A stretch of 64,000 nt of DNA. It comes from Methanobacteriota archaeon (lineage in GTDB: Archaea; Undinarchaeota; Undinarchaeia; Undinarchaeales; Undinarchaeaceae). Location: NCBI GenBank assembly GCA_002687935.1, contig NZBN01000002.1, positions 1 to 64,000 on the forward strand. The letters run 5' to 3'. Below the pieces are notes generated by a model. The model was not told where the DNA came from. It did not search any database and saw nothing but the letters and a program-made list of their open reading frames with translations. This document shows positions 2,915-42,030 of the stretch, one piece after another. Every line of letters starts with the position of its first letter. Within the stretch, counting starts at the first letter, position 1. The position numbers were made by a program, and so were the translations under genes.

Positions 2915-3388
2915 TTATTCTTTTCGATAAGTAACAATATCAAAGCCTTCCTGCTTATCCCGGGAAACTTCCTTCCACTCTTCTCCGAATTCTGGGAAAA
3001 ATACATTTCCTTCATAGTCTTCAGGAATTTCTGAAAGTATCATTTTTGTAGCTGTTCCAAGGGCTTCGGCGTAGACGCTTGAGCCTCCGATTATGAAAAT
3101 TTTATTGTAGCCTTTGTCTTCGCAAAGCTGAACTGCTTCGTCAAGAGACCTGCTGATATATGAGCCATCAATTTCATTCATGCTTCTGCTAAGAATAATA
3201 TTCAGCCTTTCCGGAAGTGCTTTTCCTCCTCCAATTGACTCGAAGGTTCTGCGTCCCATAATAACGGCATTTCCTCTGGTAGTTTCCTTAAAATGCTTCA
3301 AATCTTCTGGGAGGCTCCACGGTAGGCTGTTGTCTTTTCCAATAACTCTGTTCTTTGCAAGCGCGGCGATTATGATTATTTCTGTCAT
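2915..3388 (-). CDS. folA: Dihydrofolate reductase
   Basis: IGKDNSLPW..EDLKHFK, IMGRRTFES, LPERLNIILS, IIGG motifs. Confidence 0.97.
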   Translation of the reverse strand: MTEIIIIAALAKNRVIGKDNSLPWSLPEDLKHFKETTRGNAVIMGRRTFESIGGGKALPERLNIILSRSMNEIDGSYISRSLDEAVQLCEDKGYNKIFIIGGSSVYAEALGTATKMILSEIPEDYEGNVFFPEFGEEWKEVSRDKQEGFDIVTYRKE

Positions 3389-38308: not shown

Positions 38309-39289
38309 ATGAATTCTGGAAAGCTTCCCTTTGAGAGAGAGAGAGAAATACTAATTCGCAAGGAGGAAGAGACTAATCCTGACTTGGGTTCTTCTCCGGA
38401 TGAAAGAAGCATTGAAGAACTTCTTAAAGCTTGTATAATTAATATTGACAAGTCGGCAGGTCCCACGTCTGCTAGAATTACTGATTTTGTCAAGGAAATT
38501 ATAGGCACAAAAAAATGTGGACACTCAGGAACTTTGGACCCAGGTGTTACTGGCGTTTTTCCTGTTGGTGTCGGAAGTGGAACTAAAGCTCTCCATTCTC
38601 TTCTTATAGCAGGGAAGGAATATCTCACTCTTATGCGTTTGCACGAAGAAATTTCTGAAAGAAAACTAAAAAAAGTTCTCAAAAGATTCACCACAAAACT
38701 ATATCAGACTCCTCCCATAAAATCAAATGTCAAAAGAGTTCTCAGAGTCAGAGAAGTATATTATACTAAACTCATTGAGTCCGAAGGAAAGGATGCACTG
38801 TTCACTGTTGGCTGTGAAGCCGGGACTTATATTCGGAGACTTTGTTATGACATTGGAGAAGTAACTGGTTCTGGCGCTCACATGCAGCAGTTGAGAAGAA
38901 CTCGTGTGGCAAACTTTGACGAAACTACTCTTGTTACATTACAGCAATTAAAGGATGCATTTGTTTTCTGGAAAGAAGGGGATGAAAGTGAACTTAGAAA
39001 GACATTACTTCCTATTGAATCTGCATTATCCCATCTTCCAAAAGTGGTAATAAGTGATTTCGCAATTCCTTCAGTAACAACTGGTGCACAGCTTGCCGTT
39101 CCTGGCATACTTAGTGTAGAGTCAGGTATATCTCCAGGGGAATTAGTGGCTGTTCTAAGTCAAAAAGGTGAGGGAGTTCTCTATGGTTCGGCTCTTGTTT
39201 CTTCTGAAGATATGATATCAATGAAAAAGGGGCTTGCAGTCAAGACAGAAAGAGTTCTTATGAATCCCTCAACATATTCAACAAAATGA
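38309..39289 (+). CDS. cbf5: H/ACA pseudouridine synthase Cbf5
   Basis: IDKSAGPTS, GHSGTLDPGVTG, CEAGTYIR, PUA domain. Confidence 0.96.
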   Translation: MNSGKLPFEREREILIRKEEETNPDLGSSPDERSIEELLKACIINIDKSAGPTSARITDFVKEIIGTKKCGHSGTLDPGVTGVFPVGVGSGTKALHSLLIAGKEYLTLMRLHEEISERKLKKVLKRFTTKLYQTPPIKSNVKRVLRVREVYYTKLIESEGKDALFTVGCEAGTYIRRLCYDIGEVTGSGAHMQQLRRTRVANFDETTLVTLQQLKDAFVFWKEGDESELRKTLLPIESALSHLPKVVISDFAIPSVTTGAQLAVPGILSVESGISPGELVAVLSQKGEGVLYGSALVSSEDMISMKKGLAVKTERVLMNPSTYSTK

Positions 39290-39966
39290 GCACTGAAGAA
39301 CAACAAGAGCATTATTACAAGGAAAAGACAAAGATTCCTCTTCATCTCGGAGAAGTTTCTGCTTTAATCAAAGGTACTGAACTAAAGTTATTTTCTTCTC
39401 CCCCTGTATTTTCTTGGAGGCAAATTGACAAAGGCAGTCTTATTATGGCCGAGAATATGCTTATTCCTGAAGGGCAGGGAAAGCTTCTTGATATGGGCTG
39501 TGGTTATGGGGTTCTCGGTATTTTTGCAGCTCTTCAGAATCCTCTACTCGAGGTGCAGATGGTTGATTCAAGCGAGCGTGCTGTGTATCTGACAAAGAAA
39601 AACATTCGGAAATATGGTCTTGGTTCGCGTGTCACAGTTGTTCAGGGAAATTTGTTTGAAAAGCTTGAGGATAAAGATTTTGATACTATTGTCTCAAATC
39701 CGCCTTATTCTGCTGGGAAGGATGTGGTTGAACGCTTGATTGCTGATTCTCCTGCTTATTTGGCTGAAGTGGGTACGCTTCAAATTGTAGGCCGGCATTC
39801 CAAAGGCGGTAAAATGTATAGAGACTACATTAAAGAGGCATTTACTTATGAGTTTGAGTTTGGAAAACAGAGTGGATTTCGTATATATCTTGGGAGTAAA
39901 AAAGATATACCTGAACTACGAGAGGATAAAGAGTCTATACTGGAGTCTTACTCCACGGACGAATAA
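39286..39966 (+). CDS. Class I SAM-dependent methyltransferase (RsmC-like)
   Basis: VFSW..IDKGS, LLDMGCGYG, VSNPPY. Confidence 0.9.
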   Translation: MSTEEQQEHYYKEKTKIPLHLGEVSALIKGTELKLFSSPPVFSWRQIDKGSLIMAENMLIPEGQGKLLDMGCGYGVLGIFAALQNPLLEVQMVDSSERAVYLTKKNIRKYGLGSRVTVVQGNLFEKLEDKDFDTIVSNPPYSAGKDVVERLIADSPAYLAEVGTLQIVGRHSKGGKMYRDYIKEAFTYEFEFGKQSGFRIYLGSKKDIPELREDKESILESYSTDE

Positions 39967-40856: not shown

Positions 40857-41018
40857 ATGTTAAAAGAACTAAGGAAAAAATTACAAAATCTTAGCAAGAT
40901 AAAGAATTGTCCAGCATGCAGTTCTAAGGATATTACTTATGATTCTAAGGGTAAAGCACATCTCTGCAATGATTGTGGTGTAGATATTCAGGCTACTATT
41001 TCTTCTAAAACTGAGTGA
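40857..41018 (+). CDS. Stand-alone TFIIB-type zinc-ribbon protein (not in ORF track)
   Basis: MLKELRKKLQNLSKIKNCPACSSKDITYDSKGKAHLCNDCGVDIQATISSKTE*; TATAAA 26 nt upstream. Confidence 0.7.
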   Translation: MLKELRKKLQNLSKIKNCPACSSKDITYDSKGKAHLCNDCGVDIQATISSKTE

Positions 41019-41045
41019 TTTTAGGTCCTTTCTATATAGATAAAG

Positions 41046-41053
41046 TATATAAA
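41046..41053 (+). promoter_or_regulatory. TATA box upstream of the tandem ncRNA
   Basis: TATATAAA preceded by a purine-rich BRE-like stretch, 20 nt before copy 1. Confidence 0.65.
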
Positions 41054-41073
41054 GTCCTATGTACTAGGAGATG

Positions 41074-41174
41074 TGCTAGGAGGTGAAGGCAGCGCAAACC
41101 TTCGGGGGTGCGCTTTGAAGTGTTTCGAAAGAAACATGGATGTTGCTGTAAAAAGCAGGTCTTCGCTTTATAGC
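41074..41174 (+). ncRNA. Structured RNA of unrecognised family, copy 1 (four-way junction)
   Basis: P1 41083-90/41159-66, P2 with UUCG loop, P3 with GAAA loop, P4 with GUAAAA loop; covaries with copy 2. Confidence 0.8.
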
Positions 41175-41184
41175 TCCCATAAAA

Positions 41185-41286
41185 TGCTGGGAGGTGAAGG
41201 CAGTACAATTCTTCGGACTTGTACTCTGAAATATCTTGAAAGGGATATGGATGCTGCTGTAAAAAGCAAGTCTTCACAAAACAGCA
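41185..41286 (+). ncRNA. Structured RNA of unrecognised family, copy 2
   Basis: Offset 111 nt from copy 1, 25 substitutions, same fold, six compensatory pairs. Confidence 0.8.
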
Positions 41287-42030
41287 CTAAATTTTTGTTT
41301 GCTTAGCAACCTTTTCTGATTCTATTCTAGCCTTTTCACTATCTCCTAGATAGTAATGCTTTACAGGATTCAAATTATCATCTAGCTCATAAACAAGAGG
41401 AATTCCGGTTGGTATATTCAATTTCGTTATTTCCTCGTCTGATATCTTATCTAAATATTTTACAAGTGCCCTAAGGCTGTTTCCATGGGCGCATATTATC
41501 AATTTCTTACCTTCCTTTAATGATGGAGCAATTTTATCATTCCAATAAGGCAGTACTCTGTTAACAACATCTTCCAAACTTTCTGTGGCTGGCAGTTCAC
41601 CCTTTTCAAGTTTTGCGTAAAGTTCGTCATTTTTTGGATGCCTCTCGTCATCACCACTTAAAGTCGGTGGTCTAATGTCGTAACTTCTTCTCCACAGGAA
41701 GACTTTTTTCTCCCCCTCTTTCTCTGCAGTTTCTTTTTTGTTAAGTCCTTGGAGGGCCCCATAATGTCTTTCATTGAGTCGCCAGTTTTTGTATATAGGA
41801 ATTTCTGAGAGTCTCATTTCTTTTAAAACTATATCAAGAGTTTCTGTTGAACGTTTTAGAACTGAAGTATATGCTTCGTCAAAAGTATAGTTTCCTTCTG
41901 TCAAAAGTTTGGCAGACTCCTCTGCTTCCATTTTTCCTTTCTCCGTCAGTCCAACATCTGTCCAGCCGGTAAACTTGTTTTCAAGGTTCCATACACTTTC
42001 TCCGTGCCTGAGAAGTACCAGCTTTATCAT
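41287..42030 (-). CDS. gpmA: 2,3-bisphosphoglycerate-dependent phosphoglycerate mutase
   Basis: [38 protein letters not shown]. Confidence 0.97.
41291..41300 (+). terminator. U-rich tract after the ncRNA pair
   Basis: ATTTTTGTTT just past copy 2, convergent with the gpmA 3' end. Confidence 0.35.

Follow-up and report, generated by a model that had tools for sequence, protein, structure and literature searches.

A candidate family of small structured RNAs in the DPANN order Undinarchaeales

The question raised by positions 41074-41286 of this stretch of DNA is whether two similar units, set head to tail, form a gene for an RNA, and if so, for what kind of RNA. The stretch (the window, 64,000 nucleotides in all) comes from contig NZBN01000002.1 of an archaeon of the family Undinarchaeaceae; its genome, which we call G000, is 667 kb long and 87% complete. 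An initial annotation, made from the sequence and its open reading frames (ORFs), had proposed that the units, copies A and B, encode a free-standing non-coding RNA (ncRNA) with a four-way junction. We conclude that the locus is very probably a stand-alone gene for a new family of small structured ncRNAs, whose members known to date all come from the DPANN order Undinarchaeales. The covariation of its base pairs, its own promoter, and its RNA in marine metatranscriptomes carry this conclusion; our proposal for what the RNA does is more tentative.

Fold, covariation and homologues

Copies A and B form a gapless alignment of 101 nt in which 25 positions differ, and they repeat with a period of 111 nt, as first described. 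We scored the proposed structure on both copies and found that all 32 pairs were standard in each. Paired columns hold 17 of the 25 differences, and no pair is lost. Double-sided changes occur at exactly the six pairs that the initial annotation had named (unit positions 5/98, 20/39, 21/38, 26/33, 49/62, and 51/60), and five further pairs switch between wobble and Watson-Crick pairing. In a control in which the 3' partners were slid by 1-3 nt, pairing fell to 33-53%, with 0-1 double changes. Furthermore, the UUCG, GAAA, and GUAAAA hairpin loops and the UGAA/GGAU internal loop do not change between the copies, which was also part of the original description.

The minimum-energy fold of each copy alone is the proposed shape, at -42.6 kcal/mol for copy A and -32.9 kcal/mol for copy B (z-scores of -5.4 and -4.8). 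No shuffle of either copy folds as stably, and the reverse strand folds worse (z = -3.5 and -3.7). The 222-nt dimer folds into two independent units (z = -6.2).

To find homologues, we used a covariance model built from the two copies (R1) and two models rebuilt from added homologues (R2 and R3). R1 found the same tandem pair in a congener (G001), as well as single copies in two other families of Undinarchaeales. Taken together, the three models matched six genomes (G000, G001, G004, G005, G006, and G009) at E values of 1e-17 to 1e-24, so that the RNA is present in 6 of 13 Undinarchaeales genomes and in four of the five families. The same models matched nothing in the sister order (4 genomes) or in 134 other archaeal genomes. 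This is the search that the initial annotation had suggested, and it places the homologues within Undinarchaeales only. Similarly, when 185,579 species genomes were scanned with a motif, 32 loci came up, and the model matched just the 4 from Undinarchaeota. A motif scan of metagenomes yielded only two near-identical contigs, so diversity beyond the reference genomes is unsampled. One further match, in G003 (25 bits with R2), was a false positive: it lacks a TATA box and was gone with R3.

The eight sequences, from four families, show that the pairing is maintained over much larger distances than between copies A and B. In their alignment, 94.8% of the pair cells are standard, and 22 of 36 pairs have double changes. 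None of 500 column shuffles was as good as the real alignment, and slid controls gave 36-46% pairing with 3-9 double-change pairs. Because this alignment was fitted to the model, we ran a structure-blind alignment with MAFFT as a check. Together with RNAalifold, it recovered the closing stem, P2, and P4, with 16 covarying pairs. P3 was lost from the MAFFT alignment through the placement of indels, and each homologue folds P3 singly. Indeed, when the homologues are folded one by one, they all show the same architecture (z = -4.8 to -5.9). Paired cells contain G-U 49 times and A-C 3 times, and this excess of G-U shows that the plus strand is the functional strand. Conservation in the other families is thus of the pairing type rather than the codon type, which is what the initial annotation had expected of an RNA.

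The homologues also refine the anatomy of the RNA. The unit is ~104 nt long and is closed by a stem of 16-18 bp, which includes a U1-A102 pair and is followed by a 3' overhang (ACU). The initial annotation had divided this stem into P0, an internal loop, and P1. That division describes copy B of f1 (the family of this genome), where a purine loop breaks the closing stem; copy A and every distant homologue have a nearly continuous stem. P2 has ~10 bp and a cap that can be any of three stable, unrelated tetraloops (UUCG, GCAA, or GUAA). This swapping of tetraloops suggests that P2 may serve as a structural strut. P3 has ~7 bp and a loop of GAAA, GAAAA, or CAAAA, and at its base, beside the junction, there is a block of purine-purine pairs with the core 5'-GAA / 5'-GGA. 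The variants of this block are UGAA/GGAU, GGAA/GGAG, GGAA/GGAA, UGAA/AAA, and UAAA/GAA, and in the other families the block abuts the junction directly. So the UGAA/GGAU loop that was first described as invariant is invariant in this genus and varies in the other families. Likewise, the linker-free four-way junction holds for copy A, but in copy B the base of P4 holds a C-A mismatch. P4 has 4-5 bp and an A-rich loop (U-N-UA-M-A-M-A) that takes the forms UGUAAAAA, UGUACAAA, and UUUACACA; this loop is the best-conserved single-stranded element of the RNA.

Few junction nucleotides are invariant across the homologues, and the well-conserved unpaired nucleotides are confined to a 6-8-nt hairpin loop and the purine internal loop. 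We rejected two short resemblances. The sequence GGAGGUGA in f1 mimics a Shine-Dalgarno sequence and is not kept in the other families. UAUGG could be read as part of an 11-nt GAAA receptor, and the opposite strand is unsuitable.

None of the known RNA families that we considered accounts for this RNA. A cmscan of the whole window against Rfam 15 brought only three tRNAs to the gathering threshold. For the RNA region, relaxing the threshold to E <= 10 gave noise only (CsrC at 11.5 bits and fragments of human long ncRNAs), and nothing consistent appeared at four homologue loci. This agrees with the initial annotation, which could not assign the RNA to a family and had proposed a cmscan as the check. 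We also found no relevant ncRNA of this kind in the literature on Undinarchaeota or DPANN.

Specific families were rejected as follows. ARAGORN and RF00005 call three tRNAs in the window, none of them here, and the helix lengths are unsuitable for a tRNA, whose acceptor stem has 7 bp. The 5S, signal recognition particle (SRP), and RNase P RNAs are present elsewhere in G000 and its relatives (83, 141, and 146 bits). As for Y RNA or YrlA, we found no TROVE domain (PF05731) in G000, G001, G004, G005, or G006; as these genomes are 82-87% complete, its absence is probable. The ACU tail, the G-A pairs, and a gene for Cbf5 (the H/ACA pseudouridine synthase) 1.8 kb upstream led us to try readings as an H/ACA or a C/D guide RNA. 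An archaeal box H/ACA RNA would have a pseudouridylation pocket, and here there is a junction with closed, covarying P2 and P4 instead; also, the trinucleotide 3' of the stem, where an ANA box would lie, is ACU in 6 of 6 terminal copies. In a box C/D RNA the C box (RUGAUGA) and D box (CUGA) lie near the 5' and 3' ends, and here the termini (GCUR... and ...YAGC) are paired to each other; the only internal fragments like D' and C' boxes, CUGA and GGAUG in copy B, are not kept in other families. The purine block allows the tandem sheared G-A/A-G pairs of a classical kink-turn (K-turn) in 7 of the 8 sequences (G44-A67 and A45-G66; G009 has A-A at one of these). The 3-nt one-sided bulge of a K-turn was not found: the loop is 4x4 in f1, f3, and f4 and 4x3 in f5. 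Finally, in the window, no gene for a type III toxin (a same-strand endoribonuclease) follows the array; the next gene is convergent and of the phosphoglycerate mutase type.

Two side observations concern the universal RNAs. The SRP RNA of these genomes (in G000 at G000:C10:45726-45998; L108) is just 272-273 nt long and matches the 317-position archaeal model from end to end, which implies that it has been shortened somewhere relative to the usual archaeal SRP RNA. In the window, a weak partial match to RNaseP_arch at 2961-3089 on the minus strand (11 bits, E = 0.19, model positions 64-184), beside tRNA-Val (2777-2851), is probably noise, as the true RNase P RNA is on another contig.

Transcription, ends and neighbouring genes

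The RNA locus is represented in five RNA-seq metatranscriptome runs from three studies, and we compared four of these runs over 1801 nt around the RNA. In run X16, a single 216-nt RNA contig covers 41075-41288 at a depth of 138 and bridges the linker between the copies. In X18, an RNA contig covers 41087-41252, and X19 and X20 have contigs of copy B; gaps in the cover of single runs are no evidence of absence. The flanking genes (VRR-NUC, zinc-ribbon, and gpmA) had zero real cover by RNA contigs in all four runs, the exception being an unrelated 37-nt fragment in X20. Contamination with DNA cannot give a pattern in which the RNA is covered and its neighbours are not. The RNA is far more abundant in these samples than the mRNAs beside it. 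These data agree with the earlier proposal that the RNA is transcribed independently. The SRP RNA of G000 is present in the same runs, and in qualitative terms the new RNA appears to belong to a similar abundance class.

The sequence around the RNA has the signals of an archaeal transcription unit (Table 1). The TATA box TATATAAA ends 20 nt before 41074 and is centred ~26 nt before the G at 41075, a spacing that is typical for archaeal promoters. Each of the six lineages has a TATA-like box, ~22-30 nt ahead of nucleotide 1. At the other end, ACU follows the terminal copy in six of six genomes, and internal copies have UCC at this place. Beyond the ACU, five of the six genomes have a T-rich run; in G001 it is weak. 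In the window, this run lies just beyond the stop codon (41287-41289) of a convergent gene for a gpmA-type histidine phosphatase (247 amino acids, 41287-42030), and the stop codon overlaps the ACU tail. The element 20 nt upstream, the U-tract, and the convergent gpmA can all be read in the sequence as the initial annotation had described them. The end of the X16 contig at 41288 coincides with an assembly branch that is made by strains with a third copy (see below).

The RNA is transcribed from its own TATA promoter, and transcription probably stops at the T-rich run. The linker between the copies lacks a separate promoter at the proper distance, so copies A and B are probably co-transcribed, and they appear to be made as one dimer RNA of ~214 nt.

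Table 1. Features of the RNA locus, in window coordinates
Feature	Position	Strand	Basis or remark
Archaeal promoter: purine-rich stretch like a B recognition element, and TATA box TATATAAA (41046-41053)	41038-41053	+	Read from sequence
Probable transcription start, G, second base of the unit	41075	+	Start of X16 contig; contigs cannot prove RNA ends
Copy A	41074-41174	+	R1 model, 119.9 bits; folding, pair scoring
Copy A closing stem	41075-41090 with 41159-41174	+	
Copy A P2	41091-41114	+	UUCG loop 41101-41104
Copy A P3	41115-41142	+	UGAA 41116-41119 / GGAU 41138-41141; GAAA loop 41127-41130
Copy A P4	41143-41158	+	GUAAAA loop 41148-41153
Linker UCCCAUAAAA between copies, 10 nt	41175-41184	+	Sequence; bridged by X16 RNA contig
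Copy B	41185-41285	+	R1 model, 119.5 bits; folding, pair scoring
Copy B P0	41186-41189 with 41282-41285	+	Followed by internal loop GGAG/AAAA
Copy B P1	41194-41201 with 41270-41277	+	
Copy B P2	41202-41225	+	
Copy B P3	41226-41253	+	
Copy B P4	41254-41269	+	
3' tail ACU	41286-41288	+	Conserved; A can pair with U1
T-rich run TTTTTGTTT, likely archaeal terminator	41292-41300	+	Sequence; T5 at 41292-41296

The neighbouring genes, which we read from ORF maps and Pfam, are unrelated between lineages. In G000 and G001, a small zinc-ribbon ORF lies upstream of the RNA and the convergent gpmA-type gene lies downstream. In G005, the upstream gene encodes a secreted Cys-rich protein and the downstream gene is a convergent, Mre11-like gene. 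In G004, there is a divergent gene for a helix-turn-helix (AsnC-type) regulator upstream and a same-strand P-type ATPase gene, with its own TATA-like box, downstream. In G006, a divergent P-type ATPase gene lies upstream and a second, convergent one lies downstream. Finally, G009 has a histidine kinase gene upstream and a primase-polymerase gene downstream. The downstream gene is thus convergent in four of the six genomes (G000, G001, G005, and G006).

Several of these neighbours deserve a remark of their own. The zinc-ribbon ORF of the window (40857-41018, plus strand; 53 amino acids) is unannotated and matches the TFIIB-type zinc ribbon (PF08271) with E = 1.7e-5, which is below the curated cut-off. 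We found this ORF in G000 and G001 only, and everything else in the phylum that matched is the N-terminus of a full-length TFB protein, so it may be a genus-specific, stand-alone paralogue of the TFB zinc ribbon.

Genes of RNA metabolism lie within ~3 kb of the RNA (window 38309-39966, plus strand, and L122 1-1060): Cbf5 (326 amino acids), an overlapping methyltransferase (226 amino acids), tRNA-Ser(GGA), and, on the other side of the RNA, RtcB RNA ligase. This clustering is probably a coincidence, and it is not kept in other lineages.

In G006, the two P-type cation ATPase genes are in tandem (L007 14-1474 and 1697-3100), and the RNA gene occupies the gap between the two, on the other strand. 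G004 has the RNA upstream of a homologous ATPase gene, on the same strand (L005 1686-3101). Adjacency of the RNA and an ATPase gene is therefore common to families f3 and f5, with the orientation inverted.

Variation and rival explanations

Between G000 and G001, the A copies differ at 7 positions and the B copies at 6, while copies A and B differ at 22-26. As like copies are closer to each other than A is to B, the duplication predates the split of the two species, and both copies were kept. Copy number also varies between strains. A DNA contig of a near-identical strain (L051; Ga0187827_10093343) has three units, A-B-B, at 332-653, with a B-B period of 110 nt. This explains a feature of the RNA contigs from X19 and X20, which join 41288 back to 41179 (110 nt back). 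The B-B junction of L051, AGCACT|ATAAAATGC, is identical to this RNA joint, so we set aside a circular RNA: the genomic third copy explains the joint, and a circle, though conceivable, is unnecessary. Other assemblies (G002 contig C1, L123, and L124) end at or beside the array, which suggests that copy-number polymorphism breaks assemblies there. G002 seems to lack the RNA because its assembly breaks inside the array.

The RNA is absent from some genomes, as judged by the covariance models: all three f2 genomes, one of them 98% complete, do not have it. Absence can even be seen within a genus. In G005, the entire RNA gene sits in a 170-nt spacer between the Cys-rich secreted-protein gene and the Mre11-like gene (L004 594-763), while in G008 and G011, which belong to the same genus, the same two genes are ~10 nt apart and the RNA is absent (L102 ~2960-2975 and L103 ~2975-2990). 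The cassette of promoter, RNA, and terminator is thus clearly polymorphic, present or absent as a whole, in this genus.

Such patchiness would be expected if the RNA were an accessory of a mobile element or virus, perhaps a decoy, an antitoxin-like RNA, or a replication-control RNA, that moves as a cassette of promoter, RNA, and terminator and is amplified when the dose is useful. The strain-to-strain variation in copy number would fit as well, and so would the genomic context, which differs in nearly every lineage. In this genus, the RNA is part of a small islet after tRNA-Ser that also holds the genus-specific zinc-ribbon ORF. In G009, the primase-polymerase gene that begins ~100 nt downstream of the RNA has a PriCT domain (L008 1-1089, minus strand), and genes of this type are common on archaeal plasmids and viruses; the G009 locus may be an integrated element. 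However, the boundaries of the locus in G005 show no integrase, transposase, terminal repeats, or target duplications. Each genome has the RNA at a single locus, with no dispersed copies, and no toxin-like gene is conserved next to it. Two motif scans of IMG/VR gave no true match. Furthermore, the similarity between the RNAs tracks taxonomy roughly: the RNAs of f3 resemble those of f5, and each of the two copies in G000 is orthologous to its counterpart in G001. We consider a mobile origin to be unlikely, if still plausible.

We also asked whether the RNA could be catalytic or could sense a ligand, either as a ribozyme that cleaves itself and so releases monomers from the tandem transcript or as a trans-acting aptamer with the junction and the purine loop as its pocket. 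Many small ribozymes and riboswitch aptamers are compact multi-helix junctions with purines near the junction, and this RNA has such a junction, with conserved junction-proximal purines and GNRA-type loops. But few nucleotides of the junction itself are invariant, and, even at E <= 10, no ribozyme or riboswitch model of Rfam 15 matches the RNA. If the monomers are the active form, head-to-tail units joined by short linkers would have to be processed, and yet the X16 contig spans the linker between A and B, so an uncleaved dimer exists, and in most lineages there is a single copy and nothing to cut. The position of the RNA upstream of a P-type cation ATPase gene in G004, on the same strand, might hint at a sensor, but that gene has a separate TATA-like box before it, and the ATPase gene upstream in G006 points away from the RNA. 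A ribozyme or aptamer is decidedly unlikely.

A third alternative is that the RNA acts in cis on a neighbouring gene, be it as a 5' leader or riboswitch of the mRNA, as a stabiliser in its 3' untranslated region, or as an antisense regulator of the convergent gene. The RNA does abut the stop codon of gpmA on the opposite strand, it begins 55 nt after the same-strand zinc-ribbon ORF, and G004 and G009 have a same-strand gene downstream. Against this, no neighbour is conserved across the lineages, and among the six genomes we found no conserved 5' untranslated position ahead of a related gene. In addition, each lineage has a TATA box for the RNA itself, at a constant distance from it, and a T-rich run of its own comes after every terminal copy; the RNA contigs exclude both the upstream ORF and gpmA. 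The initial annotation had argued from the flanks that this is not a riboswitch, and the wider comparison bears this out; a cis element is very improbable.

Lastly, a protein-coding tandem repeat is next to impossible: although the period of 111 nt is a multiple of three (37 codons) and two frames (77 amino acids at 41073-41306, plus strand, and 81 amino acids at 41032-41277, minus strand) are open through both copies in G000 and G001, no reading frame stays free of stops across the four single-copy homologues, every sense frame of the G004 RNA contains a stop, and the compensating substitutions and the excess of G-U over A-C are signatures of an RNA and not of codons.

Proposed role and comparison with known RNAs

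We return to the reading of the locus as a stand-alone RNA gene. What might the RNA do? We tentatively propose that it is a nuclease-resistant, trans-acting RNA, either a scaffold or a titrating RNA, that binds protein rather than pairing with other RNAs. We favour binding to protein because the RNA has few conserved single-stranded nucleotides, protected ends, struts capped by tetraloops, and tandem amplification. Its recognition surfaces would be the A-rich loop of P4 and the purine-purine block. The block resembles a K-turn or k-junction and could be a site for L7Ae; as it has no 3-nt bulge, it is at most k-junction-like, and we offer L7Ae binding as a hypothesis and a lead only. If the function depended on dose, this would explain the tandem amplification.

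Several points weigh against this reading, in whole or in part. Only eight sequences from six genomes are known, and four of them are from one genus. Assembled contigs cannot give the strand, the exact ends, or quantitative levels of the RNA. The RNA's absence from the f2 genomes, G008, and G011 implies that cells can do without it or replace it; this suits an accessory role more than that of a core housekeeping ribonucleoprotein (RNP). The zinc-ribbon protein, which we considered as a conserved partner, is confined to genus g1 and so does not accompany the RNA. Finally, the purine block is symmetric, without the 3-nt bulge of a K-turn, and it drifts in f5 (UAAA/GAA and UGAA/AAA).

To our knowledge, no ncRNA beyond the universal RNAs has been characterised in DPANN archaea. 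The genomes of these organisms (~0.7 Mb here) rank with the smallest of any cells. In so tiny a genome, a gene that has been retained and tandemly duplicated, and whose RNA is found together with SRP RNA, is unlikely to be idle. Whether this RNA is the first of a new class of archaeal RNAs, namely an abundant, dose-sensitive RNP or catalytic RNA that is peculiar to Undinarchaeales and has a k-junction-like four-helix core, seems to us evenly balanced. If it is, its role might be tied to the reduced, host-dependent lifestyle of DPANN archaea; for example, it might titrate or escort a protein, or take over a task that proteins perform in other archaea. RNA biology gains a compact junction fold whose branch point carries a purine-purine block. 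For DPANN biology, the attraction is a marker transcript that can be detected in ocean metatranscriptomes. The size of ~100 nt suits direct biochemistry, the secondary structure is already well supported, and the natural variants in presence, absence, and copy number can be used for comparative inference.

Among known systems, the RNAs bound by L7Ae at K-turns or k-junctions (box C/D and H/ACA sRNAs, RNase P RNA, and SRP RNA) share with the new RNA an archaeal host and, by the textbook rules for Kt-7 and k-junctions, a run of G-A, A-G, A-G pairs like that of Kt-7 at the base of P3, at a multi-helix junction. In this genus, a U-U pair and then a G-C or G-U pair follow the purine run, in the same order as in the non-canonical stem of box C/D RNAs. 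Unlike K-turn RNAs, the new RNA has no 3-nt bulge, no terminal C/D boxes, no guides, and no pseudouridylation pocket, and its purines drift in f5.

The arrangement of helices recalls the tRNA cloverleaf, which also has a four-helix junction with the same order of arms and a 3' arm of 4-5 bp that joins the terminal stem without a linker and has a loop of 6-7 nt. In contrast to a tRNA, the terminal stem has 16-18 bp, P2 has 10 bp and ends in a tetraloop, an anticodon loop of 7 nt is lacking in this genus, and the signatures of the D-loop, T-loop, and variable region are missing.

Y RNA and YrlA are similar in a different way: they too are ~100 nt long, abundant, and stable, with an end-to-end stem and a multi-helix head (tRNA-like in YrlA), a U-rich 3' end, and free-standing genes that often come in several copies. 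They differ from the new RNA in having a bulged Ro-binding helix or a T-loop sequence, and there is no match to Y_RNA or YrlA in Rfam. The arrays of type III antitoxins such as ToxI are likewise tandem direct repeats of a structured RNA with copy numbers that vary between strains. Their unit is ~36 nt, as compared to 110-111 nt here, and in the new family most lineages have a single copy and no toxin gene is next to it.

The last comparison is with orphan ncRNAs, namely Hgc of AT-rich hyperthermophilic archaea and the bacterial raiA and OLE RNAs. Rfam 15 shows no match between the new RNA and any of these; OLE and raiA are also much larger, and the new RNA is confined to one DPANN order. Like these RNAs, it combines covariation and expression with a free-standing gene and a distribution that is limited to a lineage.

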